Below, piece after piece: positions 46,836-64,000 of a DNA stretch of 64,000 bases (position 1 is its first letter; every line of letters begins with the position of its first letter). The stretch is taken from NCBI GenBank assembly GCA_963793865.1, contig CAWCBP010000001.1, positions 640,001 to 704,000 of the forward strand, given 5' to 3'. The DNA is from an uncultured delta proteobacterium (lineage in GTDB: Bacteria; Desulfobacterota; WTBG01). The position numbers and the translations under genes are program-made. The notes under the pieces are model-generated. The model searched no databases and had not been told where the DNA came from. It saw nothing but the letters and a program-made list of their open reading frames with translations.

Positions 46836-49800
46836 TCATGTGACAGATTTTGCAGCAGATCTTTTGACCTCGAAATGCCATTTCCATATCTCATAAATTG
46901 CAGGATACACCAGCAATTCCAAGGCAAAAGAAGTGAAGATTCCGCCGATCATGGGTGCGGCAATCCGTTTCATGACGTCAGCCCCGGTACCTGTGGACCA
47001 CATGATGGGAAAGAATCCGATAAATGTGGTAGCAACGGTCATCAGCTTGGGCCGGAGGCGCATGACTGCGCCCTCAAGGATTGCGCTCCGTAAATCCGGG
47101 AGATTGCGAAGGCGCCCCTCACTTTTTGCCTTTTCATAGGCAAGGTCAAGATAGAGAAGCATAAAGACACCGGTTTCCGCGTCGACTCCGAGCAGTGCCA
47201 GGAGTCCGACCCAGACGGCAACGCTCATATTGTAACCAAGCAGGTAGAGCAGCCAGACAGCGCCAACCGCCGAGAAGGGCACGGCCAGAAATACAATCAT
47301 TGTCTTGGTTATGGACCGGGTATTCATGTAAAGAAGCAGGATGATAAGGAATAGGGTCAAAGGAACAATTACAAGCAAACGATCTTTCACCCGCTGCATG
47401 GCCTCATACTGACCTGTCCAGGTTAAAGCATAGCCGACCGGCAGCTTAAGGGCATCCTTCATTATTTACTTTTGCCTCCGCGACATAGCTTCCCGGATCC
47501 CGTTCCGCAAGGTCAATATAGACATATCCGGTGAGAAGTCCGTCTTCATTCCGGATCATGGAGGGCTCACTCACAAACTCGATGTCGGCAAGCTGGTTCA
47601 GGGCAATTTGCCGCCGGCCATCCAGGGCAGGCACAAGTAGTCGCCCCAGCGCTCCGAGGTCGGATCTGAAGTCGGCCTTATAACGAACGTTAACAGGATA
47701 TCGCTCCCTGCCCTTCCACCGTGGTGGTGATGTTTTCACCCCCGATCGCGTTCAGCACCACTGCCTGCGCACCTTCGATGCTCAGCCCGTGCCGGGCAAG
47801 CTCACCTCTTTTCCACTTGATGTCAATGAAGTAACCGCTGCTGGTGCGCTCGGCGAAAACGCTTCGCGTTCCCTTAATGGGGAGGAGGTGCTCCTCAACC
47901 CGGGCGCCGATTTGTTCGATAACCTTAAGATCATCACCGGATATCTTGATTCCCACAGGTGTCCTGATCCCGGTGGTGAGCATATCAATCCGGGCCTTGA
48001 TGGGCATGGTCCATGCGTTGGACAGTCCCGGTATTCTCAGGGCATCATTGAGCCGGCTCACCAGCTCCTCACGTGAAATGCGGTCCGGGGTGATGTGCCG
48101 CAATATATCCTTGAGCCATTCCGGCGCCCAGGAGGAATACCAGGTATCAATACTCCGCCACTGAGACTCCGGTTTGAGCATGATCACCGTCTCGAGCATG
48201 GACAATGGTGCGGGATCGGTGGAGGTTTCCGCCCGTCCCGCCTTGCCGAGCACCCGTTCAACCTCTGGGAACTCCTTGATAATCCTGTTGGTCACCTGGA
48301 GCAATCTTTGCGCTTCGGTTATGGATATTCCCGGCATGGTGGTGGGCATGAAGAAGAGCGCACCCTCATCGAGGGGGGGCATGAATTCTGATCCGAGCCG
48401 GTTAAATACAGGGACTGTGACCAGGACAATTACGAAGGCTGAGCCGATGACGAGCCACTTGTACTGCAGCGACCAGGTTGCAATGGGCCGATACATCCTT
48501 ATCAGAAGTCTGCTTATGGGGTGTTTGTCCTCGGACCTGATGGTGCCCACGAAGAGGCCGTTAATGGTCTTGCTCAGCCAATAGGGCCGGAAGCCGAAGT
48601 TTTTCACATGGGTCAGCAGAAGCCTGAGCGCGGGATCGAGGGTGATGGCGAGAAAAGCGGCGATGACCATGGCAAGTGTTTTTGTGTAAGCCAGGGGTTT
48701 GAAAAGGCGGCCTTCTTCGGCCTCAAGCGTCAGCACCGGCAAAAACGATACGGCGATGACCAGCAGGGAGAAGAAGCTCGGGCCCGCGACCTGTTTGATG
48801 CCATCGACAATCACCGCGCGATAGTCACCCTGCTCTCCATTTTTCTGCCACTCTTCAAGCCGCTTGTGGGTCTGCTCGACGACCACGATTGCCGCGTCCA
48901 CCATCTCTCCCATGGCGATGGCGATGCCGCCCAGAGACATGATGTTGGCGGTAACACCCATTGCCCTGAAAAGGATGAAGGAGATGAGAATGGATATGGG
49001 AAGCGTGATGATGGGAATCAGGGAACTGGGGGGATGCCAGAGGAAGAGGAAAATGATGAATGAAACGGTGATGAGAATCTCGATCAGGGTTGACTGCAGC
49101 GTGTCAATGGCCCTCCTGATGAGGTCGGACCGGTCATAAACGGGAACAACCTTGACACCCTCCGGAAGCCCCGGTTCGAGCTCCTTCAGCCGTGCCTTCA
49201 CCCGGTCAATTACCGTCAGGGCGTTCTGGCCCTGCCTCATGACCACAATTCCCGAAACCACATCGCCGGTCCCGTCCAGGTCAGCCACCCCTCTGCGGTA
49301 ATCAGGGCCGATGGTCACCTCGCCGATGTCCCTGATGCGGACAGGTGTCGCATCCTCGGTTGCGGTGAGAACAATATCCCCGAAATCATCAATGGTCCTG
49401 GCATACCCTCTGCCCCGTACCATGTATTCGGTACCGCCGAACTCGATCAGCCTGCCGCCCGCCTCCACATTACCCGATCTTACCGCATCAACAACCTGAT
49501 TGATGGAAATGTTATATGCCTGAAGGCGGTTCGGATCAACATTGACCTGGTATTGCTGAATGAAGCCGCCCACCGTAGCCACCTCGGCGACCCCCGGCAG
49601 CGCCTTGAGATAGTACCGGAGATACCAGTCCTGCAGGGACCTCAATTCGGCAAGATTGCGGGTGCCTGAATCATCCACCAGGGCGTACTGGAAGACCCAG
49701 CCCAATCCCGTTGCATCCGGTCCGAGTTCGGTCTGAACACCCTGGGGAAGCCGGGGTATCACGCTGGACAGATATTCCAGCGTGCGTGACCGCGCCCAAT

Positions 49801-50107
49801 AGATGTCGGTATCATCCTGAAAAATGACATAGACAAAGGAGTAGCCGAAGTCGGAAAATCCCCGCACCGCCTTAACACCGGGAGCTCCGAGCATGGCGGT
49901 GACAATGGGATAGGTGACCTGGTCCTCGATAATATCAGGACTGCGGTCCCAGCGGGAGTAAATGATTACCTGGGTTTCGCTGAGGTCGGGAATGGCGTCG
50001 AGGGGGACACGCTGCATCGACCACCATCCCCAGATGCAGGCGACGGTGACAAGAAGAAATACGATAGGCTTATTTTTGACAGAAAAGTCGATGACGCGAT
50101 CGATCAT
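46836..50107 (-). CDS. cusA: CusA-family heavy-metal RND efflux permease (two apparent frameshifts near 47705 and 47455)
   Basis: LDAIPDLSETQV, GSEFMPPLDEG, LRPKLMT across three consecutive ORFs. Confidence 0.92.
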
Positions 50108-50141
50108 TACTTTGCGCGTGGTGGTGGCAACCGGTCAGGGT

Positions 50142-51978
50142 TTAATCGCTTTCCATAGTGTCGCTTGGTGCAGCGTCATGTGCGACGGGTTCAGTCGGGG
50201 CATCTTCAAGGTCATCCCGGTCTTTCTCAGAGGAACCATCACTGCCGGGGGCTGGTGTGTTCCCCGGCTGCCCGGAAGGTGTGCTTTTATCATGCTGCTG
50301 TCCGAGATATTTTGCTCCCGGAAATTTCCCCCATGCGCCCCAGTTGCCCGCTTCTGAAGCTTCATTCTTTGTTTTGCCGCCACCCCAATCAATGACTCCG
50401 CGAGTGTCTGCTGATGTGGGGGATGGTTTGTCCGTCTCCTTCACCTGCTTCCGTCTTGCCATGCTTGATGTCCTGGCCTGTCTGAACAGGTTTCATAAGA
50501 TCAAGCCAGCCGTTTTCCATATCCGGCATATCGGCATGAGCTGATGTCTGTTTTCCCGTTATATATTTTCCCGGTTGTTCTTTGAAAAGCTTTACGCACA
50601 GGTCCGAGCAGAAATAGTACGTCATGCCTTCGTGTTGAGCGATCCTGCCCGAGAGTTCTGCCTGTGCCATGTCAGCGTTCATGCCGCAGACAGGATCCTT
50701 GGCCGTCTTGTCTTCGGTGCCTGACGCCGCGGTTTTCATCCGGCTCTCGGAATCAATGAGAAAGTTACCCGAGACCACCACCTTGTCCCCGGGCATAAGG
50801 CCGCCGGTAATCTGAATCTGCCTGCCAAGCTTCCAGCCCGTTTCGACCTCGCGGGGCTCGAAAATGCCATCGCCGGTTTCAACATAGACAATGGTCCTGG
50901 TGCCCGAATCAATGACGGCGTCAGCCGTCACATGGATTGATTCAGGCATGGTGACAGGGATCTCCACATCCACAAACATGTCAGGCCTTAAGTCATAGTT
51001 TGGGTTGCCTATATCAAGTCGCATCTTCAGCGTCTTGGTCGCGGGATCAAAGAGCGGCAGCACTTGGCTTACCTGCGCGTCGAAGGTCTTACCCATCTGT
51101 GTATTCAGTACCTTTACCATCATGCCGGGTTTCAGGTAGCGGGCCTCGTTCTCGTACACATCCGCATACACCCAGACTTTTCCGATGTCGGCAATGCTGA
51201 AGAACTCGTCTCCTGCTTTCAGCCACTGTTTGAGGGTGAGCTTCCTGCTCAGGACAACGCCACTGGCAGGGGATCTTACTTGAAGGTAAGGCTGGGCCTT
51301 CCTGGTATTGGCCAGTTCCTCAATCTGGGCGTCGCTGATCCCGAGGTTCTGGAGGGCCTGCACGGCAGCGCGGATCTGATTGTCCGCCATGTCGGTCTGC
51401 TGATGGCGAAGCTCTCCGCCGAGCTGCTGCTTTATGCGGTCTATATTGTCAAGGGCAACCAAATAGGTTACCTGGGCATTGTAGTACGCAGGGGCAAGCG
51501 CCACGGCCAGAATCCTATTTTTTTTAACGATGCTTCCGGTCGTAACGTCAGAAAGCTCCCGTATCCAGCTGTCTGTTGAGGCATTGACGCGATAGATCCT
51601 GGTTTCATCGAGGGCAACCTTGCCGTAGAGGCGGAGGGTATAGGTCATGGGTCTGATCTCAACAGGGGCGACCTTCACCCCGATAAGCTGCTGCCGGGCC
51701 GGCTTGATCTGCACTGAACCGGGGGAAAACACGGGAAGGGCAGCGTTATCCTGCCCCTCGCCGACTTCAGCATAAACCGGCTCCAGGGGCATCCCGCATG
51801 GCGCCACTCCCGGTGCCTCGGATCGAAAGCCGGGATTCATAGGGTCTACATAATAGAGGATTGTGCGCTCAGATTGAGTGCTTGCGGAGGGTGGCTGTGC
51901 TTTTCCGTACCATCTTCCGGCTGCGAAGAAAAGAACAGCAATGGTCAGCATAATAATCGGTACGATGACTTTTTTCAC
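50142..51978 (-). CDS. cusB: CusB-family RND adaptor with YHS domain and C-terminal extension (apparent frameshift near 50455)
   Basis: YYVDPMNP...CGMPL, FLIDSES, KDPVCGM...YYFCS; ORF 50142..50462 is the likely continuation. Confidence 0.85.
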
Positions 51979-52159
51979 ATCAGGCTCACATCTTTATGCT
52001 GTTGTCAAAGATTCATCTGAAATGAGACACATTCAAAAACTTCCAGGTACCTGAAGTGGACCAACTAAACATAACATATATTTGCATTGCCTTAAATTGT
52101 TTTTTTCATCTTCACCACAACTCTCCATCAGGTTCCTTTCGCATGAAGCGTTTTAATAC

Positions 52160-52190
52160 ACAAAGAGGGGACCCGAGGTCCCCTCTTTGT
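52160..52190 (-). terminator. Terminator-like hairpin after the multicopper oxidase
   Basis: ACAAAGAGGGGACC-CGA-GGTCCCCTCTTTGT. Confidence 0.7.
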
Positions 52191-52214
52191 TAACAGGAAT
52201 GAACCGATAACCTT

Positions 52215-54251
52215 CTACTGGACTAGCTGCCGTGCAGCCCCAACGGTGTAGTTCCGCATCATTTCGTTGTCTTCATGGTCGACTATATGGCAATGCCATA
52301 CATACCCAACGCCATTGATGAGTTCGGTGGGATCAAACGGATAAAGGTTTGTACCTGCCGAAACGCCTCCAACCGGCACATCCTGAGGTGCCCATCTGAC
52401 CGCTATCCTTGTTACCTCACCAGGATACATGATGGCGGTGTCCTTCCAGCCCTTTTCATACGGGAGCGGCAACCTGCGTTTTTTCAACTGCAGGTAAGGT
52501 CCTATTGCGGGATTGCCACCGATGGCACCGTCAGCATTTTTGATGTTGTACTGGTTCGGCGGCCCGCCGCCGGGAAGCACACCATTGGCCGCGAGCTGAG
52601 CATCATACAAATTGATCCACCGTGAAGCCTGCAGCGGTGTGCGGTCCAGGATCTGGAAAGTCACAAGATGAGTGTGCATGGGGTGAGCGTCAGCAGTGAT
52701 GTTGATGACTTCCCATATCTCGGTATCTCCCACTGCCGGAATCTCTGTTTCACGGCAGAGAGGAGTGGGGCAGCCGGGAGTAATGCCTGCGAGATTATAC
52801 TTAGAGTTGTTCACTACCAGTTCGAGCGGACCACCGGCACCAATCACTTCGTTAAGGGTAAGCTGGCGTTTGATGCCATTTACTGCATCAAAACCATTGA
52901 GGATCGGCTCGAGGGGTGTTGGCCGTATTGCGGTTCCCGCTGCGATAGCTGTGTCGGGTATGACCCCATTGAGAGGCAGGTTTACCCTGAACTGCATGAT
53001 CGTGTCGGTTCCACCCAGCGTAGGTCTTGCTCCGCCTGGAAACGGTGTGCGCGCTATGTTTGACATAACCACTGTGGTTCCCTGTGGCAGACCCCTGAAG
53101 TCCACAATTACCTCGTAACGTTCGCCGGGCCCGATTATCAGATTGGGTGTTAAAACAGCATTCTGAAGATAACCGCCGTCAGTTGCGATAACAAGGAATT
53201 TTAATCCCTTGCTCATCGAGAGGTCATAAAAGCGGGCGTTTGAGCCGTCCACAAATCTGAAACGGTACTGCCGGGGTTCTACATTCAGATAGGGCCAGGT
53301 CTTGCCGTTAACGACGATTGAGTCTCCGATGAACTCCGGGATCCAGAAAGGATGAATCGTCGGGTTCGGCTGGGGGTTGGAGGCCAGATTATAGAAAATC
53401 TGGCAGTTTGTATCAAAACTTCTGTCCTGGAGAATGAGGGGGATATCGTACTCAGGAAACTTCGGCAAGGAGGCAAGTGGGGGTTTGCCGGATCAATTAT
53501 TGGGTACAAACCGGCCAGCCCCGCATAAACGTTCAGCCTGGTCAGGCCCAATGCATGGTCATGAAACCATATTGTTGCTTCCTGCTGCCCGTTGGGATAC
53601 GTGTACGTATTACCCGGAAAGCCTCTGCCAGTGATTCCAGTCGCTGTTTCCCAGGCATCGGGACCACCGTCAAACGCAGGCGGTACCTCGCCCCCGTGGA
53701 TGTGTGTTGCGGTGGGCATCGCGCCGGTATAACCACCCAGCAGGCCGCATAACGGATTAGTGTAGTTTCCGGCAGGATCAGGTGCGCAGTTTATATTCTC
53801 AGGATTTGCCCAGTCAATCGTCATATCAATGGGAAGGAGCGGCTGCACATTTGATATCAGGGGCAACTCATTAAAATATGACGGGAATGCCGGGACACCA
53901 CGTTCCGCCACCACGACCGGCCCAAGATAACTGGGACGCACAACACTACCGGCAGGGAGATCGGCATCGGTCAGGTAACCCCACACCCAGCTCGCGGTAC
54001 CGGCTGGGCAGACACCGGCAGGCATGACCTGGGGGAGAATCTGTGACTGAAATTCGCTGATGTGAATGTTATAAGCGGGTGTGCCTGCGGATGTTGCATC
54101 AATGACTGATATAGCGCCTGCAACCGGCAGCGGTTCGACAAACTTCGGTATTGTCGCTCCCGGCAAGCAGCAACTGCTGAGCGCCGGCAATGCCGACCAT
54201 GACAAAGATAAAGGTCAAACCCAACATTGTAAATCTAAGTCCTGTTTTCAT
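52215..54251 (-). CDS. Multicopper oxidase, CotA/bilirubin oxidase-like (apparent frameshifts near 54170 and 53480)
   Basis: AAGGAGGAG RBS; HIHG, WFHDH, HPMHTH and HCHIVDHEDNEMM copper motifs. Confidence 0.9.
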
Positions 54252-55234: not shown

Positions 55235-55353
55235 AGGTTTATCAGGTGCGGAAATGAGCCTGACATCGAACGGTAAGAATAATTCGTAATATTAAGCTTG
55301 ACAAAGTTATGAGCATGATACTAGAAACAGCGATAAATAAATAGATGATAGAA

Positions 55354-55456
55354 GCAAATCTCCGAACCGCTTTTTCTAAAACCAAACGGTCATGAAGAGC
55401 GGTCGAAGGGTAGCATTCGAAAGAGTGTTGCCTCCCGTGCTCGGAAAGGAGATGTA
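55354..55456 (+). promoter_or_regulatory. Moco-type (molybdenum/tungsten cofactor) riboswitch upstream of tupA
   Basis: P1 ATCTCC/GGAGAT, P2 ACCGCTTTT/AAGAGCGGT with CTAA, P4 GGGTAGCATTC-GAAA-GAGTGTTGCCT, then CCCGT...GGAAAGGAG. Confidence 0.88.
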
Positions 55457-55467
55457 TGTGGAGTTTC

Positions 55468-55506
55468 AAAAGCCAGCATATCCCGATCCGGATGCTGGCT
55501 TTTTTT
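55468..55506 (+). terminator. Riboswitch expression-platform terminator
   Basis: AGCCAGCAT...ATGCTGGCT followed by a T-run, between aptamer and tupA. Confidence 0.8.
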
Positions 55507-55569
55507 ATGGCGCGCCAGATCATTCTCAATGTGCGTCAACATAAAATGCATCCGCTATAACAAGGGAGG

Positions 55570-56403
55570 TTGATGGTGAGTAAATCGCGAAGAGCAAAAT
55601 TTTTCATAGCAGCACTTGTTTGCACGATTCTAATCTTTACCGGCAACAGCTTTGCTGAAGAACGACTGAAGATGGCAACCACCACCAGCACTGAAAATTC
55701 CGGATTGCTTGAGATTGTTGTGCCGCCTTTTGAACAGATGTTTAACCTTAAAGTGGATATTATTGCGGTGGGAACGGGCAAGGCCATGAAACTGGGTGAG
55801 ACCGGTGATGTGGACGTGATTTTCGTTCATGATCCCGTTGATGAGGAACGTTTTATTGTTCAGGGCTATGGAGTCAACCGGCGGGCAGTTACACATAATG
55901 ATTTCGTTCTGGTTGGGCCTGCGGGTGATCCCGCGGGATGCAGGGGTATGAAGAATATTACCGAAGTATTCTCCAATATCGCGAAATCAAACGCCTTGTT
56001 TGTTTCCCGCGGGGATGACTCCGGCACGCACAGGAAGGAAAAGGAGATCTGGGCAAAGGCGGGTGTTGTGCCTCAGGGCAAGTGGTACATGGAAGCAGGG
56101 CAGGGGATGGGGGCAGTATTGCAAATGGCGCATGACAAGATGGCCTATACCTTGGCTGACAGGGGAACCTATGTCGCTTACAAACCGAAGATAGATTCAA
56201 TTATAATCTCGGAGGGAGATCCCCTGCTCTATAACCCCTATGGGGTTATTGCCGTGAATCCCGCGCGCCATCCGCAGGTGAACTATATCAAGGCAATGGC
56301 TTTTATAGGATGGCTGACTTCACCGGAGTGCCAGAAATTAATCGGCAACTTTAAAAAAGAAGGAGAAGTGCTTTTTTATCCCGATGCAATCCCGGTACAA
56401 TAA
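55570..56403 (+). CDS. tupA: Tungstate ABC transporter substrate-binding protein
   Basis: ATTTSTENSGLL, VGTGKA, SRGDDSGTH, DRGT, NPY. Confidence 0.92.
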   Translation: MMVSKSRRAKFFIAALVCTILIFTGNSFAEERLKMATTTSTENSGLLEIVVPPFEQMFNLKVDIIAVGTGKAMKLGETGDVDVIFVHDPVDEERFIVQGYGVNRRAVTHNDFVLVGPAGDPAGCRGMKNITEVFSNIAKSNALFVSRGDDSGTHRKEKEIWAKAGVVPQGKWYMEAGQGMGAVLQMAHDKMAYTLADRGTYVAYKPKIDSIIISEGDPLLYNPYGVIAVNPARHPQVNYIKAMAFIGWLTSPECQKLIGNFKKEGEVLFYPDAIPVQ

Positions 56404-56421
56404 AAACAAAGTTGTTAACCG

Positions 56422-56472
56422 GTAGGAGCGGCTTTAAGCCGCGAATGCATCGCGCATGAATGCGTGCCTGCC
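56422..56472. repeat. Degenerate GTAG-type REP doublet
   Basis: GTAGGAGCGGCTTTAAGCCGCGA...TCGCGCATGAATGCGTGCCTGCC. Confidence 0.5.
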
Positions 56473-56520
56473 GATATGTCAAACGTTTTTAGCCGGGTTT
56501 TATTAAGACAAGTAAATATA

Positions 56521-56618
56521 TCATCTGCAAGTTACCACTCCTAAAGATCATAATCCATGGAGGGTAACCGACAGGGTAGACCCCGAAAGGGTTCTATCTC
56601 CCGTGTTTGGAAAGATGA
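56521..56618 (+). promoter_or_regulatory. Second Moco-type riboswitch upstream of the porin gene
   Basis: P1 TCATCT/AGATGA, P2 GTTACC.CTCC/GGAGGGTAAC with CTAA, P4 GGGTAGA-CCCC-GAAA-GGGT-TCTATCT, then CCCGTGTTTGGAAA. Confidence 0.82.
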
Positions 56619-56628
56619 GCTGCCATAG

Positions 56629-56663
56629 GGCCAGTTCCATGTCAACACGGGACTGGCCTTTTT
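56629..56663 (+). terminator. Riboswitch expression-platform terminator
   Basis: GGCCAGTTCC-N10-GGGACTGGCC-TTTTT. Confidence 0.78.
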
Positions 56664-56694
56664 GCTGATCAGGAAGGCAATTCTGTTCAAGAGT

Positions 56695-56786
56695 GAGATT
56701 GGCGCGCCATGCTCGCAATGGCAATATTGAGCGAGTCTATAACTAGACACGTCGTTGCGAGGAGCGTAAGCGACAAAGCAATCTCA
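56695..56786. repeat. Pair of REP-like family B elements in the porin leader
   Basis: GAGATTG...CTCGCAATGGC and GTCGTTGCGAGGAGCGTAAGCGACAAAGCAATCTC. Confidence 0.55.
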
Positions 56787-56851
56787 TGCTTCAAAAATAA
56801 TTAATTCAAAAAGCTTTCCTCCTTGGTTGCACCGTCATAGGCAGGACTATT

Positions 56852-58237
56852 ATGATAAGAACAGCAATTGGTTATTTGTATCTTGATTTCAATACTCTTC
56901 TTATCAATGGCAATGCTGACGCTGAAAACCTTGCCAATGATAAATTATTGGAAATACTAGAGCAGAAGGGTTTCTTAACGGAAGAAGAGGTAAAAGAAGT
57001 CAAGGGAATACTTACCAAGGAAGAGGAAAAGGAAGTTAAAGTTGTCTATGAGGAAGGGGTTCATATCAGAACCAACGACAAAAGTTTTGATACCAGGATC
57101 GGGGGAGTTATTCAAACTGATCTGATCGCATTCAGCTCACATTATCCCGAGGACAACGATTTTGATATCAGAAGGGCGCGCCTGTTTATAGAAGGAAGGA
57201 TGTTCGACTATTTCGGTTATAAATTTGAAGGGGAATTTGAAGGTGCAAGCAATGACCGGCTGGTGGATGCCCTGATAAATTTCGATTACTTTCCTTACCT
57301 GCAGCTCCAGGTGGGTCAGTTTAAAGAACCGTTCAGTCTTGAGAACCTCATTTCAGACAAATATCTTCCCTTCAATGAGCGGTCAATGGCCTATTATCTA
57401 ACACCCGCGCGGGATGTGGGTATTATGATACACGGGAATTTATTCGGTGACATGATCAACTACGGGGTAGGTGTATTTAACGGTGACGGCCGTGATGCCA
57501 CCAGAAGGAGCCAGAAGGATGATAAAGAGTATGCCGGACGCTTCGTACTGAAGCCATTTCATAAACTGGACATTCCGTTGATAAGCAACCTCCAGATCGG
57601 GGGATCCTTTGCTTATGCGAGGCTGGACACATCGGACCTGAATGTGGACATTGATACGCCGGGCCGAACAACTTTTTTTGAGGTGAATTCGCGGGCCAAG
57701 TTTCGTGTTATTCAGGATGTTGACGACAGGAGGCGGTTTGGATTTGAAATGGCTTACACCTGCGGTCCGCTTGCTCTTATGGGGGAGTATATCAGAAACG
57801 ATTACCATGGAGTGCTGCCTACCGATGAGGATGCGTTTGATTTCAGCATGAAGGGATGGTACGCGGGCATGCTGTTGATGCTCACCGGAGAAAGGCCGGT
57901 GATCTCAAAAGGGGTGCTGGAGAAAATCAGGCCCAGGAACAACTTTGATATTAAGGGCCGGAAATGGGGCGCCTGGGGAATAGGCTTCCGCTATGAACAG
58001 TTCGAAGCGGACCAGGTGGTCTATGATGAGCTTGTTTTCGAAGGGCAAAGCGTAAGACGTGCAAATTCATTTACGGCGGCTTTGAACTGGTATCTCAACA
58101 GCATGGTACGGTTTTCTCTCAACTACAGCCGCACCACGTTCGCGCAGCCCCTCTTTCTGGGAACCAGCCCCGAGGGGTACTCGTACTACCGTGACACGGA
58201 GAATGTCTGGGTCACCAGGTTTCAACTGGAGTTCTAG
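56852..58237 (+). CDS. OprO/OprP-family anion-selective porin
   Basis: IRRARL, GQFKEPFSLE, RDVG, GVFNG, ALNWYLN, C-terminal FQLEF. Confidence 0.88.
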   Translation: MIRTAIGYLYLDFNTLLINGNADAENLANDKLLEILEQKGFLTEEEVKEVKGILTKEEEKEVKVVYEEGVHIRTNDKSFDTRIGGVIQTDLIAFSSHYPEDNDFDIRRARLFIEGRMFDYFGYKFEGEFEGASNDRLVDALINFDYFPYLQLQVGQFKEPFSLENLISDKYLPFNERSMAYYLTPARDVGIMIHGNLFGDMINYGVGVFNGDGRDATRRSQKDDKEYAGRFVLKPFHKLDIPLISNLQIGGSFAYARLDTSDLNVDIDTPGRTTFFEVNSRAKFRVIQDVDDRRRFGFEMAYTCGPLALMGEYIRNDYHGVLPTDEDAFDFSMKGWYAGMLLMLTGERPVISKGVLEKIRPRNNFDIKGRKWGAWGIGFRYEQFEADQVVYDELVFEGQSVRRANSFTAALNWYLNSMVRFSLNYSRTTFAQPLFLGTSPEGYSYYRDTENVWVTRFQLEF

Positions 58238-58384
58238 CAGGCTGGTGAAAAACAACCATCTGCTGCGTTACGCTCATCCTTCGTCATTGCAGCGTACAGG
58301 AAAGTACGCCTCATTCCTCAGGATTTTGCGTGCCTTGCATCTGGCTGTTTTTGACCAGCCTGGGGAAAATACTTTTTCAACAAC
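58238..58384. mobile_element. MITE-like element, family A (longest copy)
   Basis: CAGGCTGGTGAAAAA ... TTTTTGACCAGCCTG-GGGAAAATAC-TTTTTCAACAAC, starting right after the porin TAG. Confidence 0.65.
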
Positions 58385-58411
58385 TTTTTATAGTAACCCA
58401 CGAGGATACTT

Positions 58412-60200
58412 ATGAAAAAGAAGATGCTGGTTGTTGCTCTTGTGATGCTGACAGGTATGGTGAGCCTCGTTCAGGCTGCCTATCACCATGAAGGGGAAGC
58501 GGACTCGCCGAAATTTGTTTCTGTTTATCCGGCTGCAGAAGGAACCAAGCTGGACAGTTGCGCCCTTTGCCATACCGGAGGCGAGTATGAGAAAAGTCCC
58601 GGCCAGTGGGTTGAGGTGGGAAGCTGCCAGTGGTGTCATCTGACCTATGGATATGACGGCAGCGGCGACATTAAGGAAACCATGAACCCGTATGGTGCTG
58701 ATTACAATTCCGCTGGAAGAAGTTCGGGAGCATTTGCTTCCATAGACGGAAGAGATTCTGATGGGGATGGCTATAGCAACAGGCAGGAGATAAATGCTTT
58801 GAGCTACCCGGGGGATGCCACAGATGATCCCACTAAAATTCCCGCCCCGTCAGTGACCTATACCCTGAGTGAACTGGAAGCATTGCGGAACCACAGTCAG
58901 TTTTTACTCATGAACACAAGCCGCTCTGGGGACTGGTATGGTGAGTATGAGGGGGTACCCATGCTTGATTTGCTGCGGGATGCGGGAATGGTTGAAGAAA
59001 CAACAAGTGCAATAACTGTTTTTGCCCCCGATGGATACTCCTACACCTACGTACTGAAGCCGGGGGGTGAGTACTATTATATAGATGGCACCTATCCCCA
59101 GGCTCAGTATTACTATGATGTCCAGGCAGATAAAGCAAACGGGGGGTGGTGTGATTATTCTGCACCGTCCACTACGGGGCGTAACAATGGTGACCCCGTA
59201 ACGGTTGAAGGCGGTTTGAAATTTATACTAGCCTACAAGAGAGATGGGGCATATCTGGAGCCGGGCTATCTTGATGAAGAAAATAGAATCCCGCTTGACC
59301 GGGAAGGCCCTTTCAGGTCAGTGCCGCCGCAAATGGTTCCCTGTCCGCCTGATCAGTCGTCAACAGCTGAAAACCAGGATGTTGTCTGGCCTTTTGACGA
59401 AAGCCTCGATCACAATGCAGGCTTCTCGGCACGCACTGCAGTCGCCATCAGGATAGAGCCTCTGCCCGAGGGCACCTCGGACTTTAACTGGTACGAAGGG
59501 GGATGGGACTATGTTGATGACAAGTCCATCATTATCTATGGCAACCTTGCCAGCGGCGGAATCCAAGGGGAAGTGATAGATCAGGATACAAGCCCTGCCG
59601 ATAGAAAACGCGTCTATCTCGACCATAAAGGAGGATATTCTGCTACAACCGACAGCGCGGGAAGCTTTGCCATCAATGGGATGAAAGTAGGCACCTACAC
59701 GTCAGGGCGTCTGCTGCCGGTTACCAATCGCAAAGCCAATCTGTAACCGTTGCCAAGGATGCTGAGCAAACGGTCAACTTCAGTCTGCCCCAGGCTGAAG
59801 ACACCTGTCCGATCGAAATGATGCTCCCGGCCGATCTCCAGAAGCTTTCCCTGTTAAGGAATTACCGGGACAAGGTTCTCATGAGAAGCGCTGAGGGAAG
59901 AGCTTATGTCAAAAGGTATTATGAGCATGCCTCAGAGATAGTCACGATGCTTCTGTTGAATCGGGATATAAGAAGCATGGCATTTAAGGCAGTGAATGCT
60001 CTTGCCCCAGTCTCTGGAAAATATCGTGGCGGGCAAGGCCGTCCAGCCTGAGCAGGTCACAACACAGGAGCATTGAATCATTAATAGAAAAAATGAAAAA
60101 GGTGAGCAGTCAATCTCTTCGGAATACGCTTTGCCTGTTTGAACAGGACATCAGCAAAAGGGATGTGAGCAGGAAGATCTTCGCCGCATCGCACGAATAA
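58412..60200 (+). CDS. Secreted diheme cytochrome c fused to a molybdopterin-oxidoreductase-like domain, a carboxypeptidase-regulatory-like beta domain and a CFI-box-CTERM-like tail (apparent frameshifts near 59700 and 60020-60050)
   Basis: Signal peptide, CALCH, CQWCH; YEGVPMLDLL, APDGY, LAYKRDG, EGPFR; shifted frame VRASAAGYQSQ...CPIEM...LRNYRDKVL...YVKRYY. Confidence 0.75.
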
Positions 60201-60226
60201 ACAAGTCAGGTACGGAGGAAATAAAC

Positions 60227-60613
60227 GTGAATCCATACAAAAAAATAAGTGTATTTTTGTTGCTTACCATAACAGGGCTTTTTGCGATGGCGCCTCAAGC
60301 TGAGGCAAATAATTTTGCAGGGATGAAATACACTATCTATATGTATAACACTGAAGAGACATCAGCCACGATGTCCTTTGAAGCAAACCTGTCCATGTTC
60401 ATAGATGCCTATGACGGGTTCGGGATCTATCTTCCCGTGGGGCAGTCTTTTACCGCGGCATACTGGGCGCCAAATTACAAGAATACCAATGACCTCTTTT
60501 TACTGGTAACAGGGGTAGTCGCTTCGGATTTTATCAGCGGCTGGGCTTTGACGTTTTACAATTACCGGCTGACCGGCATGTTTTTATACTCCGGCTATGT
60601 GACTACTCCATAG
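60227..60613 (+). CDS. Hypothetical exported protein
   Basis: GGAGG RBS, GTG start, signal peptide ending AEA. Confidence 0.6.
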   Translation: MNPYKKISVFLLLTITGLFAMAPQAEANNFAGMKYTIYMYNTEETSATMSFEANLSMFIDAYDGFGIYLPVGQSFTAAYWAPNYKNTNDLFLLVTGVVASDFISGWALTFYNYRLTGMFLYSGYVTTP

Positions 60614-60776
60614 AGCTGTGAAGCGTTGGGTGTATCATTATGTAATGTCTTTGATTCAAAAAATGTGGACTTCAGTAAATTAAAAGAGAAAGGAGGTGAA
60701 CAGCAGTAATAGTACAGAAGGAGTCCACGGAGAGGTTTTGAGCTAATTGTTGACAATTGGTATCAGTACTTTGTTT

Positions 60777-60863
60777 CCCCCTCACCTCAATCCTCTCCCC
60801 CTAGGGGAGAGGAGGTTAAAAAAGTTCCCTCTACCCTCGGGGGAGAGGGTTAGGGTGAGGGGC
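60777..60863. repeat. CCCTCTCCC/GGGAGAGGG cruciform REP-like element
   Basis: CCCCTCACC..CCTCTCCCC-T-AGGGGAGAGG ... CCCTCTACCC..GGGGAGAGGG..GGGTGAGGGG. Confidence 0.65.
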
Positions 60864-60892
60864 AGACTAAATCTATTGCGTGTTAAAGGAGG

Positions 60893-62960
60893 ATGAGAAT
60901 GAAAAAGCTACTATCAATAATGCTCGTGCTCGTGGCGTCGGTTTATGCAATCAATTTTGCAATGGCTGCCACAACTACGTATACCTGTAAGCCGATGGCA
61001 GATACCAGGATTGATGCAATAGCCCCGACGACGAATTTCGGGACAGGTACAACCCTTTTAATGGTAGGGCTTGATGGGCCGGTGAGATCTCTCATCAGGT
61101 TCAACATACCGCCCTTTGTTTCGGCGAGTCAGATACAGAGCGCCTATCTGCACGTCTATGGGCGCAGCTCTGGGACAGCATCAATTGACATAAACATTCA
61201 CCCCATAACCCCGCCGGATCTGTGGTTTGAGAAAAACCTTTCCAAACCTGACACAACTCAGATTGTCTGGGGCGCAACCTGGAATGATTACGGTGGAACT
61301 GCGAGCGGCCTTGCTTGGGTGGCACCGGGGGCAGATTACAATGCGGCCGCGTACGCTTCCGGAACTATTGTGGCCGGGCCGAATAGTATTGATATGACAG
61401 CCCTGCTCACCGGTAACCTGGATACCATACGAAAGTACGGTGTTTTGCTCAAATTGCAGGACGAATCATTGGATGTTTTTAAGAGCATGTACTCCCGAGA
61501 TAACGCGACTGATCAGCCCTATCTTGAGCTGAATGTTGATCTCGGTTTGGCTGATACTACGTATATGTGCCCCACCATTGCTGATGTGTACATGGATGAA
61601 TCGCTCGTGGACGGCGATCATAATCTCAATTTCAACTGGAAAACCAGGGTATTGCTTTCCAGGCACGCGACCTATGGAAGAGCACGCGGGCTTTGGAAAT
61701 TTGAGATTCCCGCCGGAATCCAGGCTGAGGATATCACGTGTGCGCAAATTCTTCTTTCCGGGTGCGAACATGCCTTCAGGACGAGGCAATTTAATGTTGA
61801 TTTATATGCGCTCGAAGTGCCTTTAAAGGAGGAGAAGGCAACCTGGGATGAGTCGGATACCGGTGTGGCATGGACAACCCCGGGTGGCGATTATGATGCA
61901 ACGGTAGTCTCATCGGGGATGATTTATCAGACCCTGCTTGGTAATCCCGCATATAACTGGAGGGCGGAGATTGACGTGACCGACCTCCTGGCGGGGAACT
62001 TGGTGAAGAGCGAGGGATAACGGGATATTGATGAAACTGCAGGAAGAGACAGGGACAAATACAAATCAAAATATAGCATCCAGGGAGTCTTACGATGACA
62101 GTGATGTTGCCGCCTACCTGCTGATTGATGTGGCGGATACCGATTCGGATACTGTGTGTAATACCTCCGATAACTGTCCGCTCTTAGCCAACGCCGGGCA
62201 GGAAGACGGCGATGCTGATGCGGCGGGTGATGTCTGCGATAATTGCCCGCTGATTGCCAATGCAGGTCAGGAAGATGGAGATACTGATGTGATAGGTGAT
62301 GCGTGTGATAACTGTCCGCTCGTAGCCAACGCCGGTCAGGAAGATGGAGATGCTGATTTGGTAGGTGATGCCTGTGATAATTGCCCGCTGATTGCCAATC
62401 CCGGTCAGGAAGATGGAGATGCGGATCTGGTGGGCGATGTTTGTGATAATTGTCCGCTGATTGCGAATCCCGATCAGGCAAATAGCGATACGGATGTCCT
62501 GGGGGATGCCTGCGACAACTGTCCTGTAGTAGCTAATGCCGGTCAGGAGGATGCGGACGGTGATGGCGTGGGGGATGCTTGTAACGATGCTGATGACGCA
62601 GATAGTGACGAATGGGGTGATAGCGTAGACAACTGTCCCATCAATTACAATCCCGGACAGGAAGACAACCTTCCGCCCGGGGGTAATGGAACCGGTGATG
62701 CCTGTGAATGTGAGGCAGACTTTGAATGTGATGGAGATGTCGATGGTTCAGATGCGTCAACATTCAAACTCTATTTCGGCAGAGGGCAGTTTTTTGCCCC
62801 CTGTAATGACTTGAATCCCTGCCGGGGCGATTTTGAATGCGACGGAGATGTGGACGGGACTGATGCGAACAGGGTTAAGGTTGATTTTGGCAGGAGTTCG
62901 TTCAGTGATGCGTGTCCGACGACGCCTGTTTGTGCGCAGCCGGATTGGTGCAACTATTAG
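60893..62960 (+). CDS. Secreted protein: two DNRLRE-like domains, TSP3 repeats, C-terminal dockerin-like module (one apparent frameshift near 62010)
   Basis: ADTRID..PTTNFG, RSLIRF, ATWN, SRD..PYL repeated twice; seven DNCP repeats; two DFECDGDVDG loops. Confidence 0.8.
62168..62705 (+). repeat. Thrombospondin type-3-like coding repeats (7 copies, ~69 bp)
   Basis: DNCPLxANxGQEDGDxDxxGDxC units. Confidence 0.88.
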
Positions 62961-63351
62961 CACTGGGGCACCACAGTTAAAGTCTGGTTTTAAAGGGTAG
63001 CTATCAAATCCTTTATAAACTGTAATGTGTTACCGTGGTGACTATATCATTAACATTTTTCAGGAGATTCTTGGATAAAGTATTGTAGACGTTTTAATAG
63101 TTCAGTGCCTTGTATGCCATGTGGTTCTTCAGTTCCCCTTGCCACATGGCTACAAGGCATCATGAACTATCGCTATTTTGCCCGTGCAGGATTGCCGGAA
63201 TTCAATCGCAATGCGCAAGGGAGAATTTTTTACTATTTATTGTCATAATTTTTTATAATCAATTGAGAATTTACAGTTGTGCCATCGCGAGGCAATAGGC
63301 GACGAAGTAATCGCAGAGTGCAAGAGAAGTATTTCAAAAAGGAGGCAAAAA

Positions 63352-64000
63352 ATGCAAAGGATCCTATTCGTAATCATCATGTTTGTGGTGACGTTCTTCG
63401 TTTTCAACTACGCAATAGTTGCCGCAACAACTTACAACTGTACACCGATGGCGGATACCCGGCTTGATTCGGCTACCCCGGACACAAATTATGGGACGGC
63501 TACGACGCTTAAGATGGTAGGCGTCGGAGCGGGCGGACCGGTAAGATCCATCATCCGGTTAAATATACCGCCATTTGTTTCGGCAAGTCAGATACAGAGC
63601 GCCTATTTAAATCTTTATGGAGGCAGTACCGGATCACCCTCGATTGACATTAATATTCACCCGGTAACCCCTCCGGATTTATGGTTTGAGAAGGACCTTT
63701 CCAAGCCGGATACCACTCAGATTGTCTGGGGAGCAACCTGGAATAATCACGGTGGGACAGCAAGTATGCTGCCGTGGGTAGCACCGGGTGGAGATTATAA
63801 TGCAAGCGCTTATACCTCGGCAACTATTGTGGCCGGCTGGAATAGCATTGATATCACCACTCTGCTTTCCAACAATCTGGAAACCATACGGAAATACGGG
63901 GTTCTGCTCAAAATGCAGGATGAAGCACTGAATGCCTTCAAAAATGTAAATTCACGGGATAATACATCTGATCAGCCCTATCTTCAGCTGAATGTTGATC
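63352..64000 (+). CDS. DNRLRE-like secreted protein, paralog of the upstream gene (runs off the window end; not in ORF track)
   Basis: AAGGAGG RBS; MQRILFVIIMF...ATTYNCTPMADTRLDSATPDTNYG...NIPPFVSASQIQSAYL, near-identical to the first domain of 60893. Confidence 0.88.
   Translation, partial: MQRILFVIIMFVVTFFVFNYAIVAATTYNCTPMADTRLDSATPDTNYGTATTLKMVGVGAGGPVRSIIRLNIPPFVSASQIQSAYLNLYGGSTGSPSIDINIHPVTPPDLWFEKDLSKPDTTQIVWGATWNNHGGTASMLPWVAPGGDYNASAYTSATIVAGWNSIDITTLLSNNLETIRKYGVLLKMQDEALNAFKNVNSRDNTSDQPYLQLNVD

Follow-up and report, generated by a model that had tools for sequence, protein, structure and literature searches.

A probable tungsten uptake operon under Moco/Tuco-type RNA control, with a diheme protein as candidate metal scavenger, in an uncultured delta proteobacterium

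How does tungsten cross the outer envelope of a bacterium? Bacterial tungsten uptake as known begins at the periplasmic binding protein, and the passage of tungsten through the outer envelope has been little studied in anaerobes of sulfidic sediments. The question is raised by a locus in a 64,000-nucleotide stretch of an uncultured delta proteobacterium (GCA_963793865.1, contig CAWCBP010000001.1, positions 640,001 to 704,000; hereafter the window), in which two Moco/Tuco-type riboswitches are found together with a tupA-like gene, the gene of an anion porin, that of a protein belonging to the family NF041762 (“GEGP motif-containing diheme protein”, here GEGP) and that of a small exported protein. 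It is very likely that this locus is an uptake operon for tungsten and, secondarily, molybdenum. With distinctly less assurance, we lean towards a role of the GEGP protein in acquiring these metals, as an extracytoplasmic scavenger.

A first-pass annotation had described a riboswitch, a terminator and tupA, followed by a second riboswitch and terminator, the porin, the diheme gene and the small exported gene. This order holds, with RNAs, hairpins and genes all on the + strand (Table 1). The assignment of the RNAs to the Moco class was likewise borne out by a covariance-model search with Rfam, in which both exceed the RF01055 gathering score of 36 bits and are the sole Rfam matches in the window. 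P3 is deleted in both alignments, and the 26 listed Rfam-confirmed copies of RF01055 are without exception 117–126 nt long and run from P2 to P4 with P3 absent. In the accessible part of the report by Regulski et al. (PMC2408646), 17 of 19 organisms with P3-less Moco RNAs have tungsten-cofactor genes, which is genetic evidence. The two terminators were missed by a simple consensus scan and revealed by folding. In terminator 2, an alternative duplex of the 3′ arm with P5 is available as antiterminator (−18.4, shuffle p 0.03), with 63 of 72 cells paired across eight aligned homologues, and the 3′ arm of terminator 1 can pair with P4 (−15.6, shuffle p 0.08), which is weak when taken alone. Because terminator and antiterminator pairing exclude each other, both RNAs are predicted to be OFF-type riboswitches, a direction of switching that we infer from the pairings.

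The two riboswitch units of the first-pass annotation are both present; their separateness is doubtful. On the simplest reading of the sequence, a single transcript probably spans the tupA and porin units and carries its attenuators in series, aptamer 2 probably being an internal attenuator between tupA and the porin gene. In related loci, the second RNA starts about 27 nt past the tupA stop (L009; about 27–40 nt in L009 and G005), a single RNA heads tupA, porin, GEGP and small gene with the second RNA absent (L010), or tandem RNAs stand ahead of the porin (three in L011, two in L017). An internal promoter before the porin is a conceivable alternative; a promoter scan gave nothing convincing beside either RNA. 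The third RF01055 copy of the genome lies ahead of an AOR gene and has no terminator.

Table 1. Features of the locus (positions in the window, except for the tupBC-like genes, which are given in contig coordinates)
Feature	Position	Strand	Evidence or remark
Moco/Tuco riboswitch aptamer 1, P3-less	55348..55467	+	RF01055 76.5 bits
Intrinsic terminator 1	55471..55506	+	hairpin and 7 U, about −16 kcal/mol by folding
tupA-like periplasmic tungstate-binding protein	55573..56403	+	NF041772 247 bits; PDB 3lr1
REP-like dispersed repeat after tupA	56405..56500	.	56 matches in the genome, each spanning at least 60% of it
Moco/Tuco riboswitch aptamer 2, P3-less	56513..56633	+	RF01055 60.9 bits
Intrinsic terminator 2	56629..56663	+	stem and U-tract, hairpin −20 kcal/mol by folding
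OprO/OprP-family anion porin	56852..58237	+	PF07396 123 bits; OprO 4rjw E 1.3e-21
MITE-like repeat with terminal inverted repeats, porin-diheme spacer	58237..58365	.	41 matches in the genome, each spanning at least 60% of it
GEGP diheme gene, full extent	58412..60200	+	NF041762 454.7 bits; assembled ORF ends 59746
N-terminal diheme domain	58478..58843	+	two CxxCH, near-invariant His4, DxDxD; model pLDDT 94
Sulfite-oxidase/PruR-fold domain without Mo-ligating Cys	58841..59464	+	structure match, hhalign 96.7%
Small exported beta-rich protein, lineage-specific	60227..60613	+	26 nt past full diheme gene
tupB-like and tupC-like genes	C1:713853-715603	same as tupA	same contig as tupA

The closest PDB entry to the tupA product is a tungstate-binding protein (3lr1, E 1.4e-84). 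The product carries ATTTST, which contains the TTTS motif of TupA, and scores below the equivalog cut-off of NF041772 (400), a value that 0 of 101 genomes of the phylum reach. The earlier statement that tupB and tupC are missing is true within the window; tupBC-like genes nevertheless lie 17.5 kb downstream of tupA (tupB-like: NF041773, 232 bits), on the same contig and strand, so that a reading of tupA as an orphan was rejected. The same split layout is found in a genome of the same genus (G003). As for a TupABC importer, genes of all three components (tupA, tupB-like, tupC-like) share contig and strand; the locus differs in that tupA stands 17.5 kb from tupBC, joined to a porin and a putative surface cytochrome, and in that all its Tup-like proteins fall below the NCBIfam equivalog cut-offs. 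The host genome is unusually tungsten-heavy, with 26 AFOR-family genes in 3.8 Mb. It also has ten molybdopterin-oxidoreductase matches, four of them with an in-frame TGA that is probably selenocysteine, a separate modABC-like locus and cytochrome c assembly genes. The P3-less RNAs, TupA and the 26 AOR-family genes are the reasons for leaning towards tungsten.

The porin has the PF07396 domain, the conserved basic residues and the C-terminal Phe of its family, in which 12 basic positions are at least 90% K/R across 54 sequences. Three-frame translation places its hydrophobic signal core in another frame, a switch for which compensating indels are the probable cause. OprO/OprP porins are known beside ABC importers, and here too a PF07396 porin adjoins an importer gene, as do the two porin paralogues of the host, which neighbour a PstS system and an SsuA-type system. 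The window porin, a candidate for the passage of tungstate, differs in its association with Tup and with an RNA of the Tuco type. No regulator site emerged when the DNA ahead of 45 porins lacking the RNA and of 14 GEGP genes was searched crudely for palindromes and with Gibbs sampling, and a complex prediction for porin, GEGP and two hemes scored 0.00 in two runs, which weighs neither way.

The diheme gene was already recognized in the first-pass annotation. Its ORF as assembled stops at 59746; the gene itself continues to about 60200. Close relatives measure 589–616 aa (the 595-aa P0001 at 92%), and comparison of the gene with two relatives places five single-base indels near 59593, 59625, 59701, 60010 and 60040. 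The 444-aa ORF (58412-59746) was rejected as the true product. The extra bases near 60010 and 60040 are missing from independent contigs in two of four runs, whose contigs cover the gene partially and leave the three upstream indels outside. Similar splits occur in 5 of the 26 AFOR genes and in several window genes, which makes assembly error likelier than a pseudogene; the five indels are probably read or assembly errors, and the true product would be about 595 aa long. It comprises a signal peptide, the diheme domain, a Cys-less sulfite-oxidase (SUOX) fold domain, a beta-sandwich and a CFI-box-CTERM-like tail, the region up to about 60200 encoding carboxypeptidase-regulatory-like and CFI-box-CTERM domains. 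About 30 CFI-box-CTERM-like tails are spread across the host genome. The protein lies well above the NF041762 cut-off of 300 bits, and the family label states no function; the accession is close to those of the TupA/B/C models (NF041772-4), and the curator may have been aware of the context.

What kind of protein is it? The AlphaFold model of its 360-aa core has a pLDDT of 90.9, and residues 122–329 form a sulfite-oxidase fold, with a VIA Z of 11.4 to PruR 7kp2 (rmsd 2.4, 123 aligned). A further PruR match (Z 11.3), SorA 2blf (11.2) and SoxC (10.7) follow, the lowest match of this kind being 8.3, and unrelated folds reach at most 2.8. Foldseek ranked the sulfite-oxidase/PruR families on top, none at E 0.001, and a PDB sequence search with the GEGP profile gave no significant match. 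A profile alignment with 17 sulfite-oxidase-family sequences (hhalign 96.7%) sets Thr147/Asn146 in place of the Mo-ligating Cys. The molybdopterin fold suggested in the first-pass annotation is thus confirmed by structure and profile alike. No Cys occurs within residues 140–158 in any of 43 diverse sequences, and one does in 3 of 100 close ones; position 147 is T, A or S, with Ala in 14 of the 43. Every one of the 43 diverse sequences keeps the two CxxCH motifs, as do 99 of the 100 close ones, and H4, N/D146, D152, R280, P284, D292, N313 and R/K319 are also invariant or nearly so over the diverse set. When searched alone, the diheme domain gave a best Z of 2.1 and no Foldseek match at E 0.001, a result that does not imply novelty. 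GEGP proteins end in different ways: in a CFI-box-CTERM, choice-of-anchor U, dockerin, SLH (in a Syntrophomonas protein) or CWB2 tail, or in none, then together with a lipoprotein-like signal. This variety, which includes the cell-surface anchors SLH and CWB2, points to tethering of the protein to the envelope.

Neither of the two known groups with this fold accommodates the protein. PruR is likewise an exported, Cys-less SUOX fold and, in the accessible parts of two reports (PMC11194511, PMC13259868), binds pterins other than Moco; it is about 170 aa long, bears a PW motif at the Cys position and has DcpA as partner. The core of GEGP is 360 aa long; besides the shared fold the protein has a diheme domain, surface tails and large insertions, and its hairpin reads N-T-S-R; filing it as PruR was rejected for the lack of a PW motif, the length of the core and the absence of a dcpA-type neighbour cluster. 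The sulfite oxidase family (SorAB, SoxCD, MsrP/YedY) shares the core fold (Z 8.3–11.2) and has heme c nearby, whereas GEGP lacks the Cys ligand, stays below the PF00174 threshold and shows no Tat-like motif by regular expression (0 of 116 close and 0 of 28 distant N-termini). A twin-arginine signal is a trait of MsrP and SorA. A place among the molybdoenzymes of this family was rejected, as the Mo-ligating Cys and the Tat signal are absent. Another Cys-less group of the sulfite-oxidase family was seen in passing, namely PF00174 proteins with Ser for the Mo-ligating Cys (L185:1486-1977, L192:1486-1977).

The link to metal uptake comes from gene neighbourhoods, which were compared in a close set (the best 80 of 262 confirmed GEGP loci) and a distant set (the best 80 of 284 loci, 33–43% identity), separate clades in a FastTree tree of 161 rows. 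Over both sets, which add up to 160 loci, GEGP has a porin as neighbour in 87 and a TonB receptor in 12; genes for Mo/W uptake or its regulation are nearby in 64. Among the close loci, 60 have a porin, upstream and co-oriented in 59; tupA is found in 21, a wtpA-like gene in 4, an HTH17-PBP regulator in 12 and a kinase-fold, storage-like gene in 5, which brings the loci with any Mo/W marker to 34. RF01055 was confirmed in 14 of the close loci, by a scan with Rfam on 20 of the 80 and with a regular expression on the remainder. The distant loci have a different O/P porin downstream (27) or a TonB receptor (12), never both; tupA/B (16), HTH17-PBP (12), a ModE-type HTH (4) and the RNA (2) give any marker in 30, and in 22 of the 37 that span at least 6 kb. 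When loci are clustered at 70% identity, a marker remains in 20 of 41 close and 18 of 41 distant clusters, set against a rough chance rate of 1–2%. The gap between porin and GEGP is at most 100 nt in 48 of 58 measurable loci. An even sample of the phylum has TupA in all six GEGP genomes, no more than 2.4 kb away in five, and GEGP exceeds the cut-off in 21 of 41 related genomes. Cultured carriers are Desulfatibacillum alkenivorans and Desulfosarcina cetonica.

Some of these loci deserve mention in their own right. HTH_17 plus PBP_like regulators stand beside GEGP and tup genes in 24 of the 160 (e.g., L038:7544-8572, L102:10339-11331), together with the RNA in only one, and are a candidate family of W/Mo-sensing transcription factors, for which no binding site came to light. 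L126, L134, L149 and L154 combine GEGP with a TonB-dependent receptor, DUF364 and FecCD-type ABC genes, which suggests uptake of chelated or pterin-bound metal; L126 has two divergent GEGP paralogues. DUF364 has been tied to metal transport by context in the accessible part of an earlier report (PMC2954201). In a Coriobacteriia genome (L049:7636-9380), the RNA lies directly ahead of the GEGP gene and there is no porin, as expected of a cell that lacks an outer membrane.

Taken together, these observations suggest the following course. Under scarcity of W/Mo or of its pterin cofactor, the RNAs would be unliganded and pair with the 3′ arms of the terminators, and a single transcript would run through tupA, porin, GEGP and small protein genes; ligand binding would free the terminators, leaving the porin and diheme genes behind two serial switches. 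Oxyanion would pass from the porin to TupA, on to TupBC and finally to the AOR-family enzymes of the host. GEGP would be an optional, Sec-exported, envelope-tethered scavenger whose Cys-less SUOX pocket (N/D146, K/R149, D152, R280, D292, N313, R/K319) would bind W/Mo species outside the cytoplasm, while its two c-hemes would alter the redox state of the bound species and free tungstate to the porin and TupA. Its cargo and the redox step are hypothesis only. The scavenger reading is favoured because GEGP would be exported unfolded and hence not loaded with cofactor in the cytoplasm, no longer has the metal ligand, retains a basic pocket and would be made when metal is scarce. Within such a role, mobilisation of the oxyanion is somewhat more likely than salvage of intact cofactor. 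The first-pass proposal of an outer-envelope W/Mo acquisition system, shut off when cofactor suffices, agrees with the RNAs and the pairing of their terminators, with tupA and the porin gene, and with the neighbourhoods across lineages, and is refined by a leaning towards tungsten.

Several facts weigh against this account. A Mo/W marker was not seen in 96 of the 160 loci (46 of 80 close, 50 of 80 distant), many of which are short; 20 of the 80 close loci have no porin, and of the 58 distant loci for which downstream sequence is available, 24 have no porin and no TonB receptor in view. TupA is present in 60 of 101 genomes of the phylum and GEGP in 6, leaving 54 of the 60 TupA genomes without GEGP; Tup therefore works without it, and GEGP is an accessory. 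The loci are related and their counts are not independent: partner types cluster by clade, which argues for a few associations inherited many times rather than 160 independent ones. Lastly, RF01055 also precedes metal-consuming enzymes and iron transporters, so that control by this RNA is not proof of uptake. In Eubacterium limosum, tup, WOR1 and iron transporters are reported to stand behind Tuco RNAs (PMC11725836).

Among other explanations, the best surviving, though improbable, is cofactor salvage, in which GEGP would take up molybdopterin or Mo/W-pterin released by neighbours, keep it reduced through its hemes and hand it inward. Its top structural matches are indeed the pterin-binding PruR proteins, likewise Cys-less; basic residues that lie on the phosphate and pterin side in the sulfite-oxidase motifs are apparently kept as R280 and R/K319, and the clade with TonB receptors, FecCD-type ABC genes and DUF364 bears a chelate-uptake signature. 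The chief partners of GEGP, however, are small-anion porins and the oxyanion carriers TupA/WtpA, and PruR scores no better than level with SorA (Z 11.4 and 11.2), which means that the fold gives PruR no preference.

A poorer case can be made for an atypical surface redox enzyme, with Mo/W on a non-Cys ligand or with heme only, merely co-regulated with tungsten uptake. The combination of diheme and SUOX domains resembles SorAB/SoxCD, N/D146 and T/S147 occupy the Cys position, RF01055 heads enzyme genes as well, and Cys-less members of the sulfite-oxidase family exist (Ser in 2 of the 17 aligned). Against it stand the Ala at position 147 in a third of the diverse sequences and the OFF switches, which would give expression under metal scarcity. 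Attachment of c-hemes requires unfolded export; together with the lack of a Tat signal, this makes loading of a cofactor in the cytoplasm unlikely. Poorest of all is an extracytoplasmic sensor or electron relay that would resemble PruR-DcpA or a porin-cytochrome conduit and take no direct part in tungsten uptake: PruR is a sensor in the accessible account, no feature is as constant as the neighbouring porin and 14 of the 80 close loci have histidine kinases, but these have no fixed position, no DcpA-like partner cluster was seen among the GEGP neighbourhoods, and the partner varies over the tree (two porin types, TonB receptor) while the Mo/W link stays.

How much of this is new? The first-pass annotation knew of no description of this combination, which stands for the role of the diheme protein, undescribed in the literature found, and not for the parts, which are in the 2008 supplement of Regulski et al. 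(PMC2408646), or for the diheme family, which already has a name. The accessible portion of that supplement lists the RNA ahead of TupABC, of Porin_O_P (in two Geobacter), of COG2414, of a sulfite-oxidase-family domain (two S. wolfei loci) and of COG2014-FecCD. The Moco/Tuco regulons thus share P3-less RNAs with terminators and tup, porin and sulfite-oxidase-family targets with the locus described here; a diheme protein or a tup-porin-cytochrome unit does not appear in that portion, and the entire supplement uses the word cytochrome a single time, in connection with formate dehydrogenase. Literature searches found nothing on the GEGP family or on a link to tungsten uptake; relevant statements may exist in subscription journals, in supplements on bioRxiv or in the comment at NCBIfam. 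The regulon is already known, and the uncharacterised diheme component appears to be the new part.

The remaining features surround this core. The small-protein gene directly follows GEGP in 11 of the 80 close loci. Its product has no Pfam or NCBIfam match, 41 homologues without an informative name and Atlas matches of at most 0.79; longer or fused forms were not among 8000 scored candidates, which is weak evidence. A paralogue in the host genome (G000:C1:560600-561155) appears, across a frameshift, as the C-terminal portion of a cytochrome c that is secreted and encoded among multiheme genes; it may be an outer-membrane anchoring module. The spacer between porin and diheme gene was rejected as a regulatory element, being a dispersed repeat; a different repeat takes its place in L009 and L010 and none in L011, and nine nucleotides replace the repeat after tupA in contigs of all four runs. 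Four REP/MITE-like families (56405-56500, 56740-56800, 58237-58365 and 60770-60870) have 11–56 copies each and are gained and lost between close relatives. Secreted DNRLRE/CBM96 and TSP3-repeat proteins lie between tupA and tupBC (window 60893-64000; L008:1-7500). Ahead of tupBC are an amino-acid-kinase-fold gene, which resembles the Mo storage protein, and an unnamed 240-aa protein with no Pfam or NCBIfam match (L008:7779-9686, equal to G000:C1:711778-713685), found near GEGP in 5–6 and 4 of 80 loci, respectively; a tungsten storage module is possible. Divergent from the operon, the − strand at 46836-54205 encodes CusA/CusB-type efflux proteins and a multicopper oxidase, in genes split by frameshifts as others of the assembly are.

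The boldest generalisation, which we hold tentatively and would sooner doubt than assert, is that GEGP proteins are cross-phylum surface metal-scavenging cytochromes, whose ligand-less fold would capture sulfided, polymeric, chelated or pterin-bound W/Mo and whose diheme domain, possibly a new fold, would release it to a gate: an anion porin, a TonB receptor or, in monoderms, none. The locus itself offers a candidate tungstate porin with an accessory, putatively surface-bound cytochrome. GEGP is linked to Mo/W uptake through three regulators (riboswitch, HTH17-PBP and ModE-type HTH) in distant lineages, and the named orphan family NF041762 thereby gains a testable function. If the scavenging role is true, surface scavenging would be an undescribed step upstream of Tup, Wtp and Mod transport; if salvage is true, GEGP would possibly represent the first bacterial salvage route for environmental Mo/W-pterin.

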